NCBI GenBank assembly: GCA_934725575.1
Contig: CAKVCK010000001.1
Location: 218,808-282,807 of the forward strand
Reading direction: 5' to 3'
Source: an uncultured Bacteroidales bacterium
Lineage (GTDB): Bacteria > Bacteroidota > Bacteroidia > Bacteroidales > UBA932
Length of the DNA: 64,000 nt
The notes under the pieces: generated by a model
The model's database searches: none
What the model was told of the DNA's origin: nothing
Seen by the model: only the letters and a program-made list of their open reading frames with translations
In this document: one piece after another, positions 2,219 to 53,318 of the stretch
Numbering within the stretch: the first letter of the stretch is position 1
Layout of the letters: every line of letters starts with the position of its first letter
Position numbers and translations under genes: made by a program

Positions 2219-3655
2219 ATGAAAACACGCACAATCCTCTTTATCTCGGCGCTTCTGGCACTGACTTCGTGCGGTTCAGCGGCGCGGTTTGCCAGTGATG
2301 CTTCCAGGCAGAAGTATCAGGATGGAATCTACTATACATCCAATGCCAAGGTCCATCAAGCCGAGGAGGCAGCCACCTCCGCAAATGACGAGGAGACCGA
2401 CCTTCTGGTAGCAAAGACAAAGAACTCCCCGATCTTCATGAAGAGCGGAGAGAAGGTTGACACTCTGTTCATCCCTGAGAACAAAGCGGCAAGAATAGAT
2501 TTCAACAACACTGACAACACCACATCCGTTTACCTCTACGACAACGGTTTCGACACCTGGGCCGCCTACCAGCCTTGGTACGCGACGTCATGGTATTCCT
2601 GGAACCGTCCTTTCTACACGTCAATCTATTGGGGCGCGAATCCTTGGTACTATGGTGGTTGGTACTCACCGTGGCACTACGACCCTTGGTATTATGGATA
2701 TTCCTGGAGATGGGGCAGTCCGTGGTATTACAGCGGATGGTACGACCCTTGGTATTGGGATCCTTGGTACTATAGCGGATGGTACGGTGGCTGGTATGGC
2801 GGATGGTACGGCGGATGGCATGATCCGTGGTACTACGGAGGATGGGGCTATGGTCATCATCACCACCACCACGGCCACGACTTCTTCGGTCCTGGCAGCG
2901 GACGGGTTTACACTCCACGTCTTAGCACAACCGGCTCAAGCAGAAGAAGCGGAATCGGGTCCTCTTCAAGGAGCGCCGGAGTGAGAAGTTCCTCAATGAC
3001 CAGATCAAGAAGCGGCGCTGGATCAACAAGATCCTCAATGTCAGCGACTACCACAAGGTCTTCAAGCCTTGGCGGACGCACAAGCGGCACAAGGTCATCA
3101 ATATCCTCGGTCAACAGGCCGGCATCCTCATCCGTAAGATCCTCATCAGCAAGATCATCCTCGGTAAGGTCTTCGTCTGACAGGTCCTCATCCGTCAGGT
3201 CATCGGTCGGCGGCACTGTCAGATCCAGCGGATCATCCTCATTCGGGACCTCTACCGGCTCATCTTCAGTCAGGTCATCCTACGGCAGCAGCCGTTCGTC
3301 ATCCTCTTCATCCTCGACGATGTACTCAAGACCGGCAAGCGGTAGCAGAAGCTCAAGCGGAACGACCTCAGGCGGATTCTCTACAGGATCCAGCAGAAGC
3401 TCTTCAACAGGCAGCTACAGATCTTCGGGATCTTCCTACAGGTCTTCGTCAAGCAATGATTATTCTTCCGGCTCGACGAGAAGCTCAAGCAGCTACTCCA
3501 CAAGCAGGAGTTCAAGTTCATATTCTTCCGGCAGCTCAAGCCGCAGCAGTAGCAGCTATTCCGGCGGCGGGTTCTCCGGTGGCGGATCATCCAGAAGTTC
3601 AGGTGGTTCGTACGGCGGAGGAGGCGGCTCCAGAAGCGGTGGCGGAAGAAGGTAA
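2219..3655 (+). CDS. Surface lipoprotein with an aromatic (Trp/Tyr/Gly) repeat region, a natural His6 run and a long Ser/Arg-rich low-complexity C-terminal tail. Function unknown.
   Basis: Start chosen at the internal Met giving MKTRTILFISALLALTSCGSA (lipobox LTSC). DPWYY/GGWY repeats occur about 10 times, then HHHHHH, then roughly 250 aa of S/R/G-rich sequence. The long continuous frame gives shadow ORFs on the opposite strand. Confidence 0.8.
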   Translation: MKTRTILFISALLALTSCGSAARFASDASRQKYQDGIYYTSNAKVHQAEEAATSANDEETDLLVAKTKNSPIFMKSGEKVDTLFIPENKAARIDFNNTDNTTSVYLYDNGFDTWAAYQPWYATSWYSWNRPFYTSIYWGANPWYYGGWYSPWHYDPWYYGYSWRWGSPWYYSGWYDPWYWDPWYYSGWYGGWYGGWYGGWHDPWYYGGWGYGHHHHHHGHDFFGPGSGRVYTPRLSTTGSSRRSGIGSSSRSAGVRSSSMTRSRSGAGSTRSSMSATTTRSSSLGGRTSGTRSSISSVNRPASSSVRSSSARSSSVRSSSDRSSSVRSSVGGTVRSSGSSSFGTSTGSSSVRSSYGSSRSSSSSSSTMYSRPASGSRSSSGTTSGGFSTGSSRSSSTGSYRSSGSSYRSSSSNDYSSGSTRSSSSYSTSRSSSSYSSGSSSRSSSSYSGGGFSGGGSSRSSGGSYGGGGGSRSGGGRR

Positions 3656-5451: not shown

Positions 5452-6081
5452 CTAAAGATTTTTAAGATAGGAGATTGAATCGGGACCTTCGTTGAAAAGG
5501 AGATCCATGATGGAAAGATTCGGAACGAAACCGTACTTTCGGGCAAAGACCTGGAAGTACGGTTTTTCCAGTTTGAGGTCTCTGAGAATGTTGTCTGGAC
5601 GTTTCGGATGGATCAGTTCCCTATAGTCAATTCCGTACCTACCGGTGTCCATCGGGATCTCACGGGAACGGACGGGAACATATTCATCGGTCATTCTCAA
5701 ATCGGCCGTGATGCCGGTCTTTCGGAGGAAAAACTTGATTATCTGGAGATTCAGGTCGAAGAGGGTCGCTGGACGAGAGTCAAGGATTCCGAACAGTTCG
5801 TCCTTGTAATATTCAAAATAAGCGGAAGATTCGTAAGCTGAGGCGATCGCCCGCTCGGTACGGATCAGCCACGGGGTTGAGTAATCCACCTTGATCTCGG
5901 TGATCGGCAATTCGTGCGTACTGCTTTCGTGAACAATCGGGAAATTAAGACTCTGAGGGCCGTCGGCGGCATAGTAACGGAAGCGGTTCCTCCAGGATTG
6001 CTTCTGATAGTGCTCGCAGGCCTCAAGGTAAACGACAGAAGGCTTCACCCTGTCCGGAGACAAGATGAAGTCTTTAGCCAT
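5452..6081 (-). CDS. WbqC-like family protein (tentative)
   Basis: Start placed at the internal Met (MAKDFILSPDR...) to avoid overlapping lpxA. Sequence is of the WbqC-like type (LNFPIVHESSTHELPITEIKVDYSTPW...). Family assignment from memory and uncertain. Confidence 0.5.
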   Translation of the reverse strand: MAKDFILSPDRVKPSVVYLEACEHYQKQSWRNRFRYYAADGPQSLNFPIVHESSTHELPITEIKVDYSTPWLIRTERAIASAYESSAYFEYYKDELFGILDSRPATLFDLNLQIIKFFLRKTGITADLRMTDEYVPVRSREIPMDTGRYGIDYRELIHPKRPDNILRDLKLEKPYFQVFARKYGFVPNLSIMDLLFNEGPDSISYLKNL

Positions 6082-6148
6082 CAATGCGAAATAGCTGACC
6101 GGCGGGAACCAGGCCACACTCAGCAGCACTGCCGCCTCCTCTTCAGAC

Positions 6149-6961
6149 CTATTCGAATTCTCCCTTCTCGTGGGAGTCGTTTGCCCTGATGATTCCACGC
6201 TTCGAGCTTCTGATGAAATTCAGGATCGTGTCACGCTCCTCGCTCTGAGGGAATCCGGCCTCCACCTTGGCGCAGCCGTCGGTGATGTTGTAGCCGGAGA
6301 AATAGATCGTGTCGTAGATGTCCTTGATGTTGCGGATCACGTCGGAAGAGAATCCGCGGCGGCGGAGTCCGACGATGTTCACGCCTGAATAGCAGATCGG
6401 ATCGCGGCCGCAGAGGACGTAAGGAGGGATATCCTTGTTGATCTTGGACATTCCGCCGACCATCGCGTGACATCCGATCTTGGAGAATTGGTGGGCCTTC
6501 GCCCCGCCACCGACAATTGCCCAGTCATCCACAACGGTCTCTCCGGCGATGCCGACAAAGCTTACAAGGATGCAATGATTGCCGACCACGCAGTCGTGAG
6601 CCACGTGAACGTAGGACATCAGCAGAGTGTTGCTGCCGATCTTCGTCACGCACTTACCGCTGGCCTTGGTGCCACGGTTGATCGTCACACACTCGCGGAT
6701 GGTGACATTGTCGCCAATCTCCACGTATGTGACCTCACCCTCATATTTAAGATCCTGAGGGATGGCGCCTACCACAGCACCTGGGAATACCTGGCAATTC
6801 TTCCCCATCTTGACGTATGAATATATCATCGCATGCGGATGGATCTTGCATCCGTCTCCGATCTCCACGTCATCATCGATGAAGGCGAAAGGACCGATCT
6901 CAATGTTGTCGCCAAGCTTCGCCTTAGGGCTGACTGACGCTAATGGTGAAATTGTGTTCAT
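6149..6961 (-). CDS. lpxA: Acyl-ACP--UDP-N-acetylglucosamine O-acyltransferase
   Basis: 270 aa. Left-handed beta-helix hexapeptide repeats and an LpxA-type C-terminal helical domain. Sits directly downstream of lpxC. Confidence 0.9.
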   Translation of the reverse strand: MNTISPLASVSPKAKLGDNIEIGPFAFIDDDVEIGDGCKIHPHAMIYSYVKMGKNCQVFPGAVVGAIPQDLKYEGEVTYVEIGDNVTIRECVTINRGTKASGKCVTKIGSNTLLMSYVHVAHDCVVGNHCILVSFVGIAGETVVDDWAIVGGGAKAHQFSKIGCHAMVGGMSKINKDIPPYVLCGRDPICYSGVNIVGLRRRGFSSDVIRNIKDIYDTIYFSGYNITDGCAKVEAGFPQSEERDTILNFIRSSKRGIIRANDSHEKGEFE

Positions 6962-6976
6962 ATTCTAAGTGTTTTA

Positions 6977-7891
6977 TCAGCAAGATTTCTCACGGATGGC
7001 CTTGGCTGTCCGTGTGTTGATTGTGTGCCCTGGCTTGAAAGCGGTGACCTTGGCCTTGAGATAACCTCCGGCGAGCCTCAGATCTCCGATCAGATCAAGA
7101 AGCTTATGCCTTCCGCACTCGTTCGGGAAATGGAGCTTGAGGTTGTTGAGGTAACCGTTGTCGTTTATGGCAAGCTCAGGCACGTTGAAAAGCGCGGAGA
7201 GCCTCTCGACCTGCTCCGGCTGGACAGGATGCTCGACGATCACGATGGCGTTGTCCACATCCCCACCCTTGACCAGATTGTTCTGGAACAAGTACTCTAT
7301 CTCGTGGAAGAACACGAAAGTACGGCACGGGCCGATCTCCTTGGCGTAGTCTGTGGTTTCGTCCCAATGCGCGGTCTGGACTCCGAGAACCCTTGATCCG
7401 AAGTCCACCGTGATGTCCATCGACGGGGCGTCGGCCGGAGTGATTCTCACGAACGAGCCTGTCTTCTCGTCACGAATCTCAATCTCCTCAGGGACAGTTA
7501 CATATTTTCTGTCAGCGTTCTGCTCCTTCAGTCCGTCACGCGCGATAGCCTCGACATAGTAGCGGGCGCTGCCGTCCAGGATCGGAACCTCGACATTGTC
7601 TATTTCAACAAGGGCATTATCCACACCCATACCCGTCAGCGCCGACATCAGATGCTCGATCGTGGAGACAGAGGCCTCACCTTTCGAGATCGTTGTGCTA
7701 CGAGCCGTTGACGACACGTTCTCCGCCAAGGCCTCGACAAACGCGCTTTCACCGAGATCCACTCTGTGGAACACTATCCCAGTGTCCTCCGGAGCCGGCT
7801 TGAGAATCATTTTCGAGATTTTGCCTGTATGGAGTCCTTTGCCTTGGAACTCATATTCACCGGCAAGTGTATTTTGCTTATAAGAAGTCAT
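6977..7891 (-). CDS. lpxC: UDP-3-O-acyl-N-acetylglucosamine deacetylase (stand-alone, not fused to FabZ)
   Basis: 304 aa. LpxC signature segments (HTGK..., EHLMSALTGMGVDNA, HELEY-like, GHTINT...). The ORF ends at 6977, 16 nt before lpxA starts, with no FabZ domain attached. Confidence 0.9.
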   Translation of the reverse strand: MTSYKQNTLAGEYEFQGKGLHTGKISKMILKPAPEDTGIVFHRVDLGESAFVEALAENVSSTARSTTISKGEASVSTIEHLMSALTGMGVDNALVEIDNVEVPILDGSARYYVEAIARDGLKEQNADRKYVTVPEEIEIRDEKTGSFVRITPADAPSMDITVDFGSRVLGVQTAHWDETTDYAKEIGPCRTFVFFHEIEYLFQNNLVKGGDVDNAIVIVEHPVQPEQVERLSALFNVPELAINDNGYLNNLKLHFPNECGRHKLLDLIGDLRLAGGYLKAKVTAFKPGHTINTRTAKAIREKSC

Positions 7892-7993
7892 AATCTATCT
7901 TTTGCAGGCTGCGTAAAATACAGCAGTCTGCAAAGATAGCAATGAAATTTTGAATATTCAAGGATTACGCCGCCACTTAGTGGCTATTGGCTA

Positions 7994-8983
7994 CTATTCC
8001 TCGCCTTGACGCTTGAAAACGGCGTAGCTGCGGAGGTAGTTCTTGAGCGGGAGGGCCGGCGAGCCGAGGAACACCTGACCTGACTTACGAATATTTCCGA
8101 TCACGCCACACTGGGCTCCGATGGTCGTGTTGTCGGCGATGTTCAGATGCCCGGCGATGCCGACCTGGCCTGCGAGGATGCAGTTCTTGCCGATCTTCGT
8201 CGAACCGGCGATTCCGCACTGGGCGGCCATCACGGTGTTGTCGCCGATCTGGACATTGTGGGCTATCTGGCAGAGATTGTCGATCTTGACTCCGTTGCCG
8301 ATGATCGTGGACTCCATCTCGGACTTGTCGATGGTCGTCCCGGCCCCGATCTCGACATTGTTGCCGATGACCACATTGCCGATGTGCTCGATCTTCTCCC
8401 AAGTCCCGTCAGGAAGCGGGGCGTTGCCGAATCCGTCCGATCCGATGACAGCGTTGGCGTGGATGATCACATTGTCGCCGATGACCATTCCAGGATAGAT
8501 GACGACTCCCGGATAGATGATGCAGTGCGAACCGATCACGGTGTTGTCGCCGACATAGACATTCTCGTAAATCTTCGTGTAGTCCCCCACCTTGGCGTGA
8601 TGCCCGACGTAGGAATGGCTTCCGAGATAGACCTTCTTGCCGAACTTTGTGGTCAGGAACCAGGACGAGCGGAACCCTCTGTGTCTCTTGTCGGTACGTT
8701 TCTGTGTAGAGACATATTTCAGAAGATCGGCCAACGACTTGTAAGCGTCATCGACACGGACCATCGTGGAGGTAACGGCCTCTTTCGGAGTGAAGTCCTT
8801 GTTGACCAGCAGGACACTTGCCCTGCACGTGTAAACGTATCTCTCGTACTTCGGGTTGGCGAAAAAACACAGCTGCCCGGGTTTTCCGTGCTCGATCTTT
8901 GCGAATGACGTGACTGTCGCCTGAGGGTCACCCTCAACGGTTCCCTTGAGCACCTGAGCCAATTGCTTTGCGGTAAATTCCAT
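7994..8983 (-). CDS. lpxD: UDP-3-O-(3-hydroxyacyl)glucosamine N-acyltransferase
   Basis: Start at [14 protein letters not shown] (typical LpxD N-terminus; the ORF could extend to 9016). Long hexapeptide-repeat beta-helix. Confidence 0.9.
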
Positions 8984-9066
8984 CTTCTTTATGGCGATTA
9001 AATCTACAATTTCCAATTACGGAATGCAAAGAAAGCAATTTATTTTCATATTCACTAAAATATTCT

Positions 9067-9074
9067 TATCTTTG
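9067..9074 (+). promoter_or_regulatory. Candidate Bacteroidetes sigma-A -7 box (TAtcTTTG) for rimP-nusA-infB
   Basis: Exact TAnnTTTG match about 65 nt upstream of the rimP ATG. No clean TTTG -33 element at canonical spacing. Confidence 0.4.
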
Positions 9075-9085
9075 CATCGTTGTGA

Positions 9086-9124
9086 GAGATAGGAGGACGA
9101 AAGCGTCTCCTATCTTTTGTTTTG
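9086..9124 (+). promoter_or_regulatory. Leader stem-loop followed by a T-run; putative transcription attenuator in the rimP-nusA-infB leader
   Basis: gagataggag(g)acg-aaag-cgtctcctatc forms an ~11-bp stem with a 4-nt loop, followed by TTTTGTTTTG. It lies between the candidate promoter and the rimP start. No plus-strand gene ends here. Confidence 0.5.
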
Positions 9125-9138
9125 TAAAACCAGACTTT

Positions 9139-9609
9139 ATGCGGAAAGAACAGATAATCCCCGGCATCGAAGAGGCTGTAAAAGCCCGCGGGTGCTTCAT
9201 TGTGGATGTGACAGTCAGCAATGATGACGACATAGTGCTCACCATAGAGAAAGAGGTCGGAGACATCGACCTGGAAGACTGCGTCAGCGTCAATGACGCT
9301 TTCCTCTCGGCCTTTGACAAGGATGTGGAGGATTATTCCCTGACAGTGACCTCAGCCGGTCTCGACCAGCCTTTCAAGGTTCTCAGGCAATACACCAAGG
9401 CCATAGGATCGGCGGTTGAGGTGAAGTTCAAAGGCGGCAGAAAGATCGTCGGAGTCCTGACGGCGGCGGACGAGAATGGAATATGCCTGAGATATTCACA
9501 GAAAGAGGCTGTCGAGGGGAAGAAAAAGAAGGAGATCGTGGAGCACGAGGACAGATTCGGCTTTGACGAGATCAATTCTGTGACACCGCACATTGTTTTC
9601 AAGAAATAA
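9139..9609 (+). CDS. rimP: Ribosome maturation factor RimP
   Basis: Start at MRKEQIIPGIEEAV. RimP-like sequence. Conserved position immediately upstream of nusA. Confidence 0.85.
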   Translation: MRKEQIIPGIEEAVKARGCFIVDVTVSNDDDIVLTIEKEVGDIDLEDCVSVNDAFLSAFDKDVEDYSLTVTSAGLDQPFKVLRQYTKAIGSAVEVKFKGGRKIVGVLTAADENGICLRYSQKEAVEGKKKKEIVEHEDRFGFDEINSVTPHIVFKK

Positions 9610-9630
9610 AAGAATATAAGAATATCAAAA

Positions 9631-10896
9631 ATGGAAAAGAAAGAAGAAATCACTCTCATTGATGCCTTCAAGGACTTCAAGGAAGAGAAGAACATCGACA
9701 GGCCTGTGATGATGGGCGTTCTCAAGGACGTGTTCCTCACACAGATCGCCAAGACTTTCGGATCGGCCGACAATTTCGATGTCATCATCAACGTTGACAA
9801 GGGAGACTGCGAGATCTACCAGAACTTCGATGTGGTCGAGGAGGTGGAGAATCCTAACACACAGATCACTCTTGATCAGATCAAGGCCGAGACCGGTGAT
9901 GACGACTACGAGATCGGAGACGTGTACACGAAGAAACTCTCCCTCGCGTCTTTCGGTAGAAGAGGAATCCTGAACATCAGGCAGAACCTTCAGGGCCGCA
10001 TCATGGACATCGACAAGGCGAATGTATTCAAGGCATATTCCGACAAGATCGGCGAGATATTCACGGGTGAGATCTACCAGACTTGGTCGAAGGAGGTCAT
10101 CATCCTTGACGACGACAACAATGAGCTTCATCTGCCTAAGGCCGAGCAGATTCCAGGAGAGAGATTCAAGAAGGGAGACACCCTCCGCGCCATCATCAAG
10201 AGCGTGGAGATGAAGAACAACACCACCCCTTACATCACTCTTTCCAGAACATCCAACGAGTTCCTTGAGAAACTCTTCGAGCATGAGGTTCCGGAGATAT
10301 TCGATGGCCTCATCACCATCAAGAAGGTTGTCCGTGTACCTGGCGAGCGCGCCAAGGTGGCTGTCGAGTCCTACGACGAGAGGATCGACCCGATCGGAGC
10401 GTGCATCGGCGTGAAGGGATCAAGAATCATCGGAATCGTGCGCGAGCTCCGCAACGAGAATATCGACGTGCTCCAGTGGACTAACAACACGCAGCTTCTC
10501 ATCCAAAGAGCCCTCAATCCTGCAAGAGTGTCATCAATCGACCTCGGCAACTCGGAAGAGGACAAGATCAAGGTTTACATGCAGCCTGACGAGGTCAAGA
10601 AAGGTATCGGTCGCGGAGGATGCAACATCAAGCTGGCAGGCATGCTTGTCGGAAGAGAGATCGAGGTCTGGAGAGAGCTTCCTAAGGACGAGGCTCAGGA
10701 AGAGGAGGACGTTCTCCTCAGCGAATTCAGCAACGAGATAGACCAGTGGGTGATCGACAGACTGGAGGCCATCGGATGCGACACGGCCAAGAGCGTGCTC
10801 GCGTTCACACCTGAGGACATCGCCAAGAGGGCCGACCTTGAGGATGAGACCGTGGCCGAAGTGTTCAGGATCCTGAGGGCCGAATTTGAAGAATAG
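9631..10896 (+). CDS. nusA: Transcription termination/antitermination factor NusA
   Basis: 421 aa. N-terminal domain plus S1 and two KH domains ([11 protein letters not shown]..., [12 protein letters not shown]). Followed by infB. Confidence 0.95.
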
Positions 10897-10939
10897 TCCA
10901 GGCCGAATAGCGGACAATATTAATTTAAAGGGGTTGAAT

Positions 10940-13921
10940 ATGGCAGAAATCAGACTAAATAAAATCATCAAGACTTACAACATCGGGCTTCAGAAACTTG
11001 TGGACTTTTTGGCCAGCAAGGGAGTTGAGGTCGAAGCCAATCCTAACGTGAAGATCTCGGAGGATCTTCTTCCGGCGATTGACAAGCAATTCGAGAAGGA
11101 CAAGGCCAACAAGCAGGCTGCGGAAAAGATTGACATCAAACTCAACGAGATTCTGGAAAAGACATCCAGAAAGCAGCAGGAAAGCGCCAAAGAGGAAGAG
11201 GATGAACCGGTAAGGGAAACTGTCATCAAGACAACCATCTTCACTCCTGTCGAGCCTAAACCGGAACCTCAAGCCGCTGTTCATGAAGAGACGGAACCTG
11301 AGCGCGAAGAGGAAGTGGAGCCGATGGCTGAGCCAGAGCCACAGCCGGAACCACAACCTGAGCCACAGCCTGAGACCCAGGCGCCGGTCGAGGAGCAGGT
11401 AAAGGAACCGGAAACGAAACCCGAGGCAGAGCATGTCAAGGAGAGTCCGGTGATCGAGGAGCCTAAGCAGGAAGTCGTGGCCGAATCCAAGCCGGAGAAA
11501 AAGGTGGATAAACCCGTCAAGAACGTTACCCCTGAGCCGACAACCCCTGCTCCAGGGAAGGATGTCCGTGGCGGCGAGAGACCGCTGAGCAAGCACGAGA
11601 GGAAACTTGCGGCCAGACAGAGGGAGGAACAGGCGAAAGCCAGACACCAGCAGCAGGCACAACCTCAGGCTCAGGCACAACCTCAGGCTCAGGCACAACC
11701 TCAACAGCCTCAGGCCAAGGAGGAAAAGCCAGCGGAGCAAAGTTCCACCCCTGGGCTCAAAGTCTTGGGGAAGATTGACTTGTCCCAGTTCGAGCCTAAG
11801 AAGGGTAACAAGAAGAGAGAGAGAATAGCCAAGGGAAGCCAGAAGGTTGACGTGGCGAAGGAAGGCAAGCAGGCTGACAACAGTTCCCGCAAGGATAAGA
11901 ACAAGAATGCCAAGCAGGCTCAGGAGCAGGGCAAGGGCGGCAAGAAGCGCAACCGTGGGACGGACCGCTTCAAGCCGGCCATGACCGAGGAGGAGCAGGA
12001 GGCGATGCAGAAGGAGATCCAGAAGCAGGTCAAGGAGACCTACGCCAGGATGAACGACAACAAGAAGAACAACTTCGGAGCCAAGTACAGAAAGGAGAAG
12101 AGGGAGCAGGCCGCGGCCAAGTCCCAGGAGGAGATGGCACAGGAGATAGCCGAGAAGAAGGTCCTCAAGGTCACCGAGTTCGTGACCGTGAACGACCTCG
12201 CCACCCTTATGAACAACACTCCAGTCAACGAGGTCATCAAGGCTTGCATGGATCTGGGTCTTATGGTTTCCATCAACCAAAGGCTTGACGCAGAGGCGCT
12301 TGTGCTTGTCGCCGAGCAGTTCGGCTACAAGGTAGAGTTTGTGACCGCCGACCTCACCGAAGAGATCGAGGGAAGCAGCGAACAGGCTGACCGCGAGGAA
12401 GACCTTGTTCCGAGACCACCGATCATCACTGTGATGGGACACGTTGACCATGGTAAGACATCGTTGCTCGACTATATTCGTAAGTCAAACGTCATCGCAG
12501 GAGAGGCGGGAGGTATCACCCAGCACATCGGTGCCTACAACGTGAAGCTTCCAGACGGCAGGAGGATCACCTTCCTTGACACCCCTGGACACGAGGCGTT
12601 CACCGCTATGCGTGCCCGTGGAGCCCAGCTCACCGACCTTGCGATCATCATCATCGCGGCCGATGACGCTGTGATGCCTCAGACAGTCGAGGCCATCAAC
12701 CACGCCCAGGCGGCCGGTGTACCGATGGTGTTCGCCATCAACAAGATAGACAAGCCAGGCGCCCAGCCGGAAAGGATCTACCAGCAACTGGCACAAATGA
12801 ATATCCTAACTGAGGCATGGGGTGGGAAATACCAGTGTCAGGAAATCTCCGCGAAGAAGGGACTCAACGTCGACAAGCTTCTTGAGAAGGTTCTCCTTGA
12901 GACCGACCTTCTTGACCTCAAGGCCAACCCGAACAAGAACGGTGTCGGAGCGGTCATCGAGTCATCCCTTGACAAGGGACGTGGATATCTCGCCACGGTA
13001 CTCGTGCAGGACGGAACACTCAAGACCGGAGACATGGTGCTGAGCGGCAGTTACTACGGCCGTGTGAAGGCCATGTTCAACGAACGTGGACAGAAAGTGA
13101 AAGAGGCCGGTCCTTCGACCCCTGTTTCAATCCTCGGTCTGAACGGAGCGCCGAGCGCCGGTGACAAGTTCAATGTGATGAGCGACGAGAAGGAGGCCAA
13201 GGCAATCGCCAACAAGCGTGAGCAGCTCCTGCGAATCCAGGGCATCAAGACTCAGAAGCACATGACCCTTGAGGAGATCGGACGACGGATCGCCATCGGC
13301 AACTTCAAGGAACTCAACGTCATCGTGAAGGGTGACGTGGACGGATCGGTGGAGGCTCTCTCAGATTCCCTCATCAAGCTCTCAACCGAGCAGGTTCGTG
13401 TCAATGTGATCCACAAGGCTGTGGGAGCGATCTCCGAGTCCGATGTGATCCTGGCCGAGGCTTCGGATGCGGTCATCATCGGATTCCAGGTACGTCCTTC
13501 CACGGACGCAAGGAAACTGGCCGACGAGCAGGGAATCGAAATCCGTCTCTACTCCGTCATCTACGACGCCATCAACGATGTGAAGGACGGTATCGAAGGT
13601 ATGCTTGAGCCTATCAAGAAGGAGGAGATCACCGGAACGGCGGAGGTCAAGCAGACCTTCAAGATCTCGAAGGTCGGAACGATCGCCGGCTGTCTTGTCA
13701 GGGACGGTAAGATCGCTAAGACGGCGCAGTGCAGGCTTATCCGTGACGGTATCGTGGTTTACACCGGCGAGCTCGCCTCGCTCAAGAGGGGCAAGGACGA
13801 CGTGAAGGAGGTTTCCGCCGGAATGGAGTGTGGTATCGGCATCGACAAGTTCAACGACCTGAAGGTCGGGGACAATATCGAGGCGTTCGTGATCACAGAA
13901 ATCAAGCAGACGCTTGATTAA
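10940..13921 (+). CDS. infB: Translation initiation factor IF-2
   Basis: Start at [11 protein letters not shown]. Low-complexity N-terminal linker (PEPQ and QAQP repeats, K/E-rich), then GTPase G-domain motifs ([17 protein letters not shown]) and C-terminal domains. Confidence 0.95.
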
Positions 13922-13954
13922 AAAAAGGAGGCTAAAAAAGCCTCCTTTTTTTCA
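13921..13954. terminator. Bidirectional rho-independent terminator shared by convergent infB and folP transcripts
   Basis: A7 run, then stem aaggaggct / agcctcctt (9 bp, A5 loop), then T7. Located just after the infB stop codon. Confidence 0.8.
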
Positions 13955-13963
13955 ATCAAGCGC

Positions 13964-14133
13964 CCGTAAAATCAACCCCCAGCCCCTTCGGGACAGCCCC
14001 GGTGGGGCACTGGGGAGCGGTCTCCCCAGACCCCTTGCGTCGCTACGCGCTGCGCGCGCTTTTCATCCAACCCCCAGTCCCTTCGGGACAGCCCCGGTGG
14101 GGCACTGGGGAGCGGTCTCCCCAGACCCCTTGC
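13964..14133. repeat. Two direct copies of a 75-bp GC-rich structured element, about 95 bp apart
   Basis: Copy 1 at 13964-14038 and copy 2 at 14059-14133, differing at one position (agCccc vs agTccc). Each contains internal hairpins (ggggag-cggt-ctcccc; ccccag...ctgggg; ccc-ttcg-ggg) and is much more GC-rich than its flanks. Confidence 0.7.
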
Positions 14134-14165
14134 GTCGCTACGCTCCGATTAACACGCTAGTTACC

Positions 14166-14990
14166 TTAAATACCATTTAAAAGGCGGTAGAGATTGACTG
14201 TGCGGACAGCCTCGGCGACATCGTGGACGCGGAGGATGTCCGCGCCGTTTTGCAGGGCGATGAAGTCGGCGACCTGCGTTGCCGGAAGCGCCTCAGCTGG
14301 AGTGATGCCCAGAGGCCTGAACAAGAAACTCTTGCGGGACAGTCCCACAAGAATATCTTTACCAAACTCCTGAAGGACAGCCATTTCACGGAGCAGTTGC
14401 CAGTTCTGTTCCACCGTCTTAGCGAAACCGAAACCTGGATCCAGAATCCAGTCCTTCACCCCGTGCCGGTCCGCCTCGGCGGCGATCCCGACAAAGAACT
14501 CACGGACAGCCTCGGTGACATTGTCATAGTCAGTTAGCGTCTGCATATTCTTTGGAGTGCCACGTGTGTGCATGGCGATGTACGGCAGCTGAAGCTGTCC
14601 AAGCAGCCTCCACATGTCCTCACACCCACCGCTGACATCGTTCACTACGAAAGGGCCGACGATGTCGAACGCGCGGCTCACGACGGAAGGCCTGAAAGTG
14701 TCAATCGAAATCCTGACCTCAGGATGCTCAGATGCAAGAATATGCAAGGCCGGCTCAAGCCGTTTCCACTCCTCTTCCTCACTGATGGAGTCGGAGCCGG
14801 GGCGTGTCGAGCACGCTCCCAAGTCAAGGATGTCCGCTCCCGACTCAAGCATATTCACAATCCTGCCGCGGAAAAGTTCCTCATCGAAGGACCCGTCCGC
14901 CCGGAGGTTGCGGCTGCCTGCGAAAAAAGAGTCGTCGGTGAGGTTCACTATGCCCATCACCTGAATATTTCTGTCTGCCTTGTTTCCCAT
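14166..14990 (-). CDS. folP: Dihydropteroate synthase
   Basis: Start at MGNKADRNIQVMGIVNLTDDSFF (Pterin_bind motifs VMGIVN.TPDSFSDGG-like). The upstream in-frame extension is probably not translated. Confidence 0.9.
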   Translation of the reverse strand: MGNKADRNIQVMGIVNLTDDSFFAGSRNLRADGSFDEELFRGRIVNMLESGADILDLGACSTRPGSDSISEEEEWKRLEPALHILASEHPEVRISIDTFRPSVVSRAFDIVGPFVVNDVSGGCEDMWRLLGQLQLPYIAMHTRGTPKNMQTLTDYDNVTEAVREFFVGIAAEADRHGVKDWILDPGFGFAKTVEQNWQLLREMAVLQEFGKDILVGLSRKSFLFRPLGITPAEALPATQVADFIALQNGADILRVHDVAEAVRTVNLYRLLNGI

Positions 14991-52629: not shown

Positions 52630-53318
52630 AACCTTTCCACTGATTTGAAATAACGGTAAAGGGACATCATCTCCTCTTCCTTGAGCGGCGTGCGGAAATA
52701 CACGGACGAGACTTCCGGATTGAGCTGGAGCTTCCGAACGGCCATAAAGAGGAAATATTCCGCGGTGGTGAAATCAGCGGCGCGGAACACGTTGGCCAGA
52801 AGCAGGTTCCGGCCCTGGGATATTCCAAGATGAAGGTAACCGGCGGCATACGAGGCCACAATCCTGTTATATTCATCGACCTTTTGCAGATCCTTTAGGA
52901 TGAAGTACATCTCCGGAAGGATCCGCGCGGCCTTTCCCTCCTCGTCAAGCACAGCCTGCGAGATCGTGCGGGACAGCATCTCACCTATCGAAAGGGAATA
53001 CACCAGCTCCGCCGCATATTCCGGAAGACCGATATGGCCGACCTCGTCATCATTGCCAAGAGCAACCGTTTCGGACAAAGTCTCCCGCGCCTTGGCTTCA
53101 TCAAAGAAAGCGGTCGGCACCAACGCCACCTTCGGAGTCAACAGCGACACCTCCACCTTCGGGTATCTCCTCTGAAGCTCCGGAGCGGTGAATACGGTGT
53201 CAGCGGCACGCCAGCCGGACTCCATAGAAGAGCTACCATCCACCACCTTAAAAGAATATCCATTCAAGCAAACTTGAATGGATATTCCGGTTGTCATTTT
53301 CTGTGGATTCCAGTCCAT
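52626..53318 (-). CDS. Bacteroidetes conserved hypothetical protein (DUF3822-like), translationally coupled to rsmD
   Basis: 230 aa. 4-nt overlap with the rsmD start. Family assignment from memory and uncertain. Confidence 0.5.
   Translation of the reverse strand: MDWNPQKMTTGISIQVCLNGYSFKVVDGSSSMESGWRAADTVFTAPELQRRYPKVEVSLLTPKVALVPTAFFDEAKARETLSETVALGNDDEVGHIGLPEYAAELVYSLSIGEMLSRTISQAVLDEEGKAARILPEMYFILKDLQKVDEYNRIVASYAAGYLHLGISQGRNLLLANVFRAADFTTAEYFLFMAVRKLQLNPEVSSVYFRTPLKEEEMMSLYRYFKSVERL

Follow-up and report, generated by a model that had tools for sequence, protein, structure and literature searches.

MITEs, such as Correia and ERIC, are small non-autonomous repeats of intergenic regions which can carry terminators or promoters. 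Small RNAs derived from 3′-UTRs are comprised of a structured unit and a hairpin resembling an intrinsic terminator, located downstream of a coding gene and co-oriented with it. REP and BIME sequences are sometimes organized in composite arrays and can persist for a long time (PMC2817692, PMC3337134). Group IIC introns are found 3-11 nt downstream of terminator-like stem-loops, including those at the ends of rRNA (rrn) and tRNA operons (PMC1702495), and they are co-oriented with the terminated unit. At the level of mutation, template switching at quasipalindromes is an established process in E. coli (PMC7202029). Bacteroidales, a dominant order of the human gut, have been poorly charted for small intergenic repeats.

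The infB–folP spacer

The 64-kb window (the whole stretch of DNA analysed) contains, between the convergent genes infB and folP, two copies of a GC-rich repeat which are one array of a previously undescribed structured repeat family. The locus is composed of the following parts:

10886-13921, + strand: infB, translation initiation factor IF-2 (Pfam IF-2, GTP_EFTU and IF2_N)
13911-13921: last codons and stop codon of infB, forming the left outer arm of the palindrome, CGCTTGATTAA
13911-13962, no strand assigned: 52-nt palindrome, CGCTTGATTAAAAAAAGGAGGCT-AAAAA-AGCCTCCTTTTTTT(C)AATCAAGCG, from an inverted-repeat search
13920-13952, no strand assigned: inner bidirectional terminator-like hairpin with a 14-bp perfect stem (100% complementary), from predicted folds
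13952-13962, + strand: outer right arm of the palindrome, an inverted copy of the infB 3′ end, TCAATCAAGCG
13963-13970, + strand: linker between the palindrome and unit 1, CCCGTAAA
13971-14048, + strand: element unit 1 (cmsearch, 102.6 bits)
14046-14065, + strand: inter-unit spacer, mini hairpin CGCGC-TGC-GCGCG with CTTTT, then CA, terminator-like on the + strand
14066-14143, + strand: element unit 2, with GTCCC/GGGAC as stem 1 (cmsearch, 106.2 bits)
14144-14148, + strand: terminal tail TCCGA, from family comparison
14166-14990, − strand: folP, dihydropteroate synthase (Pfam Pterin_bind), convergent with infB, its stop codon at 14166

A preliminary description of this DNA had reported two near-identical copies with a single C/T difference, lying beyond a terminator between convergent infB and folP. 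These observations hold. The copies are direct, 76 nt long (13973-14048 and 14068-14143) and identical at 75 positions, the C/T difference is at unit position 11, and the distance from start to start is 95 nt. GC content is 0.72 per unit versus 0.52 for the window, Pfam identifies the flanking products as IF-2 and dihydropteroate synthase, and the element is placed past the infB terminator. The span then given, 13964-14133, captures the locus but not its limits, as it starts about 7 nt early and cuts the second copy about 15 nt short; the true limits of the array are 13971-14148.

The 45-mer core occurs twice in the window and in none of 100 dinucleotide-preserving shuffles. A third copy, even a diverged one, was absent from the window in searches with short-word blastn and with the covariance model. 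ARAGORN finds no tRNA-like gene. Protein coding was rejected on the grounds of unit periods of 94-98 nt and variation concentrated in loops, and the 88-aa ORF at 13914-14180 is an artefact of the repeat. Elsewhere in the window (53254-53287), a perfect 15-bp palindrome, GAATATCCATTCAAG-CAAA-CTTGAATGGATATTC, is located between, or overlapping, two minus-strand ORFs and is unrelated to the element.

The repeat family and its units

A covariance model (R1), built from 37 unique units, detected about 125 units in 73 sequences, representing about 12 gene contexts. An exact-pattern scan, with each species represented by one genome, detected the core in six Bacteroidales MAGs, and a second scan, anchored on a different part of the unit, added 66 metagenome contig loci, the majority of them from human gut samples. 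As 22-27 nt of the unit were prescribed by the search patterns, the apparent invariance of that part is inflated, partly by construction. Close homologues of flank proteins bear the names Rikenellaceae, Bacteroidales and Candidatus Cryptobacteroides. As sampled, and as judged from these sequences, the family is confined to an uncultured clade of gut Bacteroidales which is Candidatus Cryptobacteroides-like. One contig from among the six MAGs, L003 (CAVERO010000129.1), is binned as a Candidatus Methanomethylophilaceae archaeon; it carries a bacterial-type upp gene together with the Bacteroidales element and is probably mis-binned. At the end of another contig, L016 (OLWU01004764.1), the Illumina adapter ACACTCTTTCCCTACACGACGCTCTTCCGATCT is fused to a truncated unit, that is, the deposited contig contains adapter contamination.

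This distribution decides the simplest reading of the window, a local tandem duplication of no wider significance. The 99% identity of the two copies would fit it, but both the unit and the spacer recur at many other loci and in other species, and the reading is refuted. Uniqueness to this locus, which the preliminary description had named among the observations that would together reduce the finding to such a duplication, is contradicted by the same units, and its suggestion of a dispersed family rather than a private duplication is borne out across about 12 gene contexts in several species.

All units belong to arrays, the smallest comprising a single unit and the largest at least four, which repeat every 94-98 nt. 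With the strict pattern there is one locus per MAG, a lower bound as MAGs are incomplete; contigs of equal coverage from the same sample indicate two or three loci per genome at the least. Copy numbers in general are a lower bound, MAGs and metagenome contigs being the only source of related sequences. The infB locus is polymorphic, its array containing one or two units. Two assemblies with the exact folP of the window break at the element; a zero-copy allele was not found in the window's own species, where both contigs with identical folP end at this point. The variable parts of units from a single genome are about 10% divergent, which does not speak for recent transposition; mobility of the element is inferred from its distribution. 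At orthologous insertions, unit identity is 0.88-0.99, compared with 0.70-0.95 for non-coding and 0.85-0.98 for coding flanks, and the fastest-changing segment is the hairpin with the linker. In practical terms, the unit is a clade-restricted sequence marker that breaks short-read assemblies and marks rearrangement points.

The unit is about 86 nt long, has 62-73% G+C, and is built of three GC hairpins in the outline (A)TTC-ACCCCCAG...GTCGCTWCGC-TCCGA. Its full layout is (A)TTC-ACCCCCAG-[GTCMC-NNN-GKGAC]-A-[GCCCC-GGY-GGGGC]-A-[CTGGGGAS-loop-YTCCCCAG]-ACCCC-TTGNGTCGCTWCGC. In unit 1 of the window the three hairpins are GCCCC/GGGAC (with a C.A mismatch), GCCCC/GGGGC and CTGGGGAG/CTCCCCAG. The TCCGA tail is present only after the last (or only) unit of every array. 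Internal units have in its place a GC hairpin of 5 bp, part of which is the unit's terminal CGC, followed by a T-run and a pyrimidine-rich linker; accordingly, the left arm of the mini hairpin in the window borrows the terminal CGC of unit 1. A consensus scan matched this spacer at 14046-14058, followed by CTTTT, as expected of a putative intrinsic terminator. Spacers are homologous between arrays at unrelated loci and display a compensatory change, CGCGC/GCGCG versus CGCAC/GTGCG. In the simplest history suggested by the sequences, the dimer would be the inserted form, and single units would have been produced by inter-unit recombination.

Sequence variation among units is concentrated in the loops. 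One pair of stem 1 occurs as A-U (30 unique units) or as C-G (19 unique units), never in an intermediate form, and stem 2 has a paired expansion to six base pairs. The earlier statement that the element is highly structured is sustained by these two features, one clean covarying pair and one paired stem expansion, while the proposed UUCG tetraloop proves to be a 3-nt loop on a 5-bp stem, the register being set by the covarying pair and the loop unconserved across the family (TTC, TGC, TAC, TGT, TTT). Both of the other inverted repeats described, GGGGAG-CGGT-CTCCCC and CCCCAG...CTGGGG, do exist, but they compete for the same CTGGGG segment. In the family, CTGGGG can pair with a 5′ or a 3′ CCCCAG, and GGGG with either CCCC. 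Three alternative foldings are each 95-99.6% compatible with the units, and with one covarying pair only the data cannot choose between them.

Elements are flanked by housekeeping genes across contexts and are co-oriented with the gene on the 5′ side in 11 of the 12 usable contexts. The contexts comprise about seven convergent gene pairs, four co-directional ones and a single divergent one, where the element is at the promoter of a MATE gene instead of a 3′ end. A 16S-tRNA-Ile-tRNA-Ala operon precedes one of the arrays. The fetched flanks have no recurrent gene for a transposase, a reverse transcriptase or an HUH protein, and neither GC skew nor the local majority gene strand indicates a replication-strand bias.

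Co-orientation brings in the possibility that the element acts as RNA. It would be a 3′-UTR module, or a 3′-UTR-derived small RNA comprised of the unit and its own mini terminator, which is read through from the upstream gene and stabilises, terminates or regulates the upstream transcript, the stop-codon stem being part of the control. We consider this quite unlikely. Internal units do end in a GC hairpin and a T-run on the appropriate strand, with the compensatory change; the unit is more conserved than non-coding flanks; the covarying pair and the paired stem expansion point in the same direction, and the two alternative partners of CTGGGG have a switch-like look. However, the element has no visible promoter and lies behind a very strong hairpin, and the final (or sole) unit of an array is devoid of a terminator. 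Departures of the G.U and C.A types are about equally frequent, favouring neither strand, and folding of a single unit is only about 2 sd below shuffles. The zero-loop palindromes and the loop flip-flop described below are, moreover, features of the DNA level. The missing promoter and the strand-neutral wobble patterns also weigh against an independent small-RNA gene, one of the candidates put forward previously. As for a known RNA family, Rfam at gathering score gave zero matches in the window and, at 11 related loci, likewise nothing for the element. A permissive scan of 13850-14250 (E up to 10) returned sub-threshold matches only, in which E < 0.01 corresponds to the terminator hairpin, and matches over the units have E > 0.6.

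Several further observations were made in the flanks of individual arrays. In contigs L031 (11647-12050) and L054 (1-383), a 16S rRNA 3′ end, tRNA-Ile, tRNA-Ala, a hairpin and the array are followed by a convergent tsaC gene instead of 23S rRNA, which looks like an unlinked rRNA operon. Upstream of tsaC in L031 (9799-10551), and also in L054, L061 and L020, there is a GC-rich tandem repeat of 51 nt, one frame of which reads GRPVSRRGGSAHEAGSQ; it has 14.8 copies in L031 and far fewer in the related contigs. An island of about 5.4 kb, extending from an intact tRNA-Leu to a duplicated tRNA 3′ fragment beside the element, was found in L055 (~5700-11150) and L026 (~9300-14700; both in raw coordinates). 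It carries c4-2 antisense RNA (RF02944), suggestive of an integrated phage-like element. In L061 (874-2286, element on the + strand), a tyrosine integrase gene (Phage_integrase and Arm-DNA-bind_5) lies just upstream of a tRNA remnant, which in turn precedes a first unit with a degenerate 5′ end.

Gene-end palindromes beside the element

A hairpin is located 0-13 nt before the 5′ end of the element in every context but one, separated from it by a linker that is usually pyrimidine-rich. One arm of the hairpin is neighbouring DNA, and the other is an inverted copy of it. Beside coding genes, the left arm consists of the last three to eight codons and the stop codon, as found for infB, gpmA, the DUF3127 gene, upp, queA, dprA and uvrB. 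In the groEL palindrome the arm begins at the stop codon itself, and at two tRNA genes the left arm takes in the final 5-7 nt of the tRNA. There are loop-less palindromes with the stop codon at their centre (50 nt in uvrB, ~46 nt in DUF3127) and others, such as those at infB and tRNA-Leu, in which the stem of a terminator-like core is prolonged outward into the gene. In the window, the terminator noted earlier as bidirectional is present at 13920-13952, where an A-run precedes and a T-run follows the hairpin; it is, however, the core of the 52-nt palindrome at 13911-13962, whose outer arms are the infB 3′ end and its inverted copy, so that the stem reaches into the coding sequence. That the adjoining hairpin is a palindrome made from the 3′ end of the neighbour gene had been overlooked.

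Such structures are uncommon. Among the 49 gene ends of the window, infB alone has a hairpin that includes the stop codon. In all fetched sequence, a palindrome embedding the stop codon was found at 13 of 360 distinct gene ends, and 12 of the 13 are directly 5′ of an element; the lone exception is a weak 10-bp AT-rich stem. Comparison with element-free relatives is equally consistent. In those of the 90%-identity tier, infB and folP overlap by 4 nt, with their stop codons superimposed, and the palindrome is absent, and in the 86% tier an ordinary terminator is present, again without the palindrome; the infB C-terminus (...EIKQTLD and stop) is kept in relatives devoid of the element. In five lineages (94-82% identity), uvrB ends in ...LQEYLKVWKD[KR] and stop with neither palindrome nor element. 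In the spacer between the convergent genes queA and dprA, the orientation of the element differs between species, and in each case the palindrome is present only at the gene end facing the 5′ side of the element. Since the palindrome is absent from empty sites, gene C-termini are conserved and the arrangement is linked to polarity, the arm within the gene is native, and its partner was copied from it at sites that carry the element. Palindrome and element are linked, the former following the polarity of the latter, and comparison with close relatives shows the block to be an insertion.

These comparisons bear directly on the opposite order of events, in which long gene-end palindromes arise alone and are then targeted by the element in the manner of IIC introns. 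The precedent of these introns, with similar spacing, and the terminator-like cores in the nqrF, infB and tRNA contexts speak for it. Nevertheless, we disfavour it as improbable: the weak AT-rich stem is the single example among about 340 element-free gene ends, no palindrome was found at 10 orthologous empty sites in 8 lineages, and a handful of copies per genome could not saturate targets of this kind.

Some sites deserve mention in their own right. In L073-L075 (3325-3328), TTAA provides the stop codons of both infB and folP, which converge without an intervening terminator, and in L092 uvrB and relA are 3 nt apart. In L079-L081, from the species whose folP is 79% identical, the infB-folP spacer (~3332-3570 in locus coordinates) is occupied by two copies of another repeat, which is AT-rich, about 85 nt long and has hairpins of its own. 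Contig L019 provides a palindrome-free context and was left out of use as rearranged or chimeric. The contig (3011-5316, element on the + strand) matches L064 with 99% identity, except that its tRNA-Leu region is in inverted orientation; the join is 316 nt downstream of the element start and truncates a gene, so that either the genome is truly rearranged or the assembly is chimeric at the repeat.

Palindromes also differ among related strains. Loops are exact reverse complements of each other in four contexts (gpmA, groEL, tRNA-Leu and MATE). Arms co-vary (L028 versus L049, and L085): at uvrB, CTG/CAG is changed into TTG/CAA, and at tRNA-Leu, CACAAAAGG/CCTTTTGTG into CACGAAAGG/CCTTTCGTG. Arm length differs at one orthologous site (L004 versus L027), and the difference between L025 and L071 fits a central deletion, or an inner insertion, in the palindrome. 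At infB, the right arm in L062 and L067 is still TTAATCAAGCG, while the gene end is now GAC TAA. At the closest empty uvrB site, the stop codon is already followed by TCTTTC, which together with the last codons makes a quasi-palindrome matching at 6 of 8 positions; judging by its sequence, it is plausible as the seed for the 25-bp arms of element-bearing sites. Template switching at quasipalindromes explains the arm co-variation, the loop inversion and the outward growth from a seed, and by this analysis the palindrome features are the expected products of such switching, whether intra-molecular or inter-strand. Such features would not be demanded by selection for an RNA stem.

It is also conceivable, though in our assessment unlikely, that the insertion step itself writes the palindrome. 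The inverted copy of the flank would then be produced in the same event, by a break with a hairpinned upstream end or by snap-back priming, with chemistry like that of P-nucleotides or of a reverse transcriptase. The asymmetry of the ends speaks for this, with a precise 3′ end (...CGCTCC-GA) and a heterogeneous 5′ junction containing 0-13 nt of filler; several palindromes are perfect and have zero loop, they follow element polarity, and empty sites are free of them. However, the palindromes change after insertion, as seen in the loop flips, the arm co-variation and the different lengths in L004 and L027, and post-insertion processes are therefore needed anyway. A single-step origin is further at odds with the nqrF context, which retains an ordinary, unextended terminator, and with the pre-existing seed at the empty uvrB site; a candidate enzyme was not found.

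Candidate mechanism and relation to known systems

Combining these results, our leading proposal, which we hold tentatively and with somewhat less than even confidence, is a non-autonomous insertion element that lands 3′ of stem-loops, with palindrome growth by template switching and an insulating block as the outcome. The element would insert a few nucleotides 3′ of a stem-loop, in the geometry of group IIC introns, probably as a dimer from which single units are generated by recombinational deletion. The very stable GC-rich block may then stall DNA synthesis, and the stalled nascent strand could snap back on the adjacent terminator or quasi-palindrome and copy itself. Copying of this kind would extend the palindrome into the gene end, keep the arms identical, flip the loop and permit central deletions. 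For the host, a strong bidirectional hairpin together with a structured block would insulate the 3′ ends of tightly packed, often convergent genes. Support for the three components appears to fall in the order given: the insertion element, then stalling and snap-back, then insulation.

A broader formulation, that the element drives templated inverted duplication of the adjacent gene 3′ end, be it by insertion chemistry or as a replication barrier, is possible but on the doubtful side. If true, the element writes long perfect palindromes centred on stop codons and on tRNA ends, an element-linked mutational or insertion signature, and it may represent a self-installing bidirectional terminator cassette for abutting convergent genes. 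Likewise, if the block insulates convergent genes with touching stop codons, it would be a repeat that supplies terminators to a compact genome. The palindromes constitute a natural growth series, from a 6-nt seed through an extended terminator stem to a 50-nt perfect palindrome, accompanied by loop flip-flop and arm homogenisation; with these stages visible, template switching becomes directly testable in a genomic setting.

Regarding known systems, the unit sequence string had no match in the literature searched, and phage and plasmid collections gave no match to the element, the sole hit in a viral contig being the host tRNA-Leu flank. Integron attC sites were considered and rejected. Read by eye, the palindromes contain no conserved R″/R′ core sites (RYYYAAC ... 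GTTRRRY), and their sequence is that of the local housekeeping gene. The same applies to CRISPR arrays, as the 17-21 nt spacers are homologous between loci and species and no cas genes are present in the flanks.

The earlier interpretation is, overall, partly supported. It had offered a REP/BIME-like family and a miniature mobile element as candidates. With REP, BIME and REPIN sequences the element has in common that it is a short GC-rich, hairpin-forming extragenic repeat at gene 3′ ends, and some units display GTAG before the stem on the minus strand. A REP/BIME-type element mobilised by a RAYT transposase is nevertheless disfavoured as very improbable. The element is longer (~86 versus 20-40 nt), has three hairpins and occupies few loci. 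The conserved GTAG/CGTC tag is lacking: the position equivalent to GTAG on the minus strand varies among A, T, C and G, and the C of CGTC among C, G and A. Units are always direct, where REP would form inverted pairs, and a handful of loci per genome are found instead of the tens to hundreds of copies. No RAYT gene was seen in the fetched flanks, and we know of none for the clade of the element.

A classical MITE is not supported either. Terminal inverted repeats are absent, as only 4 nt of the 5′ end, ATTCACCCCC, are shared with ATTCGGAGCG, which is the 3′ end in reverse complement. The check for target-site duplications suggested in the preliminary description disclosed no consistent direct repeat around the block; the recurrence of GATTAA (infB) and TTAA (uvrB) is limited to sites at which convergent stop codons adjoin each other.

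The layout, known here from sequence, is like that of 3′-UTR-derived small RNAs, except that the same unit follows unrelated genes and a strong hairpin intervenes between gene and unit. In the dynamics of its palindromes, the element resembles template-switch mutagenesis, in which imperfect inverted repeats are perfected by a nascent strand copying its own or the sister strand (PMC7202029). Known cases amount to point-like corrections within quasipalindromes that already exist, whereas the palindromes described here have repeatedly gained 10-25 nt of coding sequence, and specifically beside one repeat family.

The closest parallel in placement is with group IIC introns, as the 5′ end of the element follows a stem-loop by 0-13 nt in all contexts but one. 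In its sequence the element is unlike group II introns: it is about 86 nt long, starts with (A)TTCACCCCC, and is devoid of GUGYG, ribozyme domains I-VI, an RT ORF and any Rfam match. Furthermore, IIC introns use pre-existing hairpins, whereas the hairpin of this element is rebuilt from the neighbour's coding sequence. The family would provide a second example of stem-loop-directed insertion, which appears to be independent of group IIC introns.
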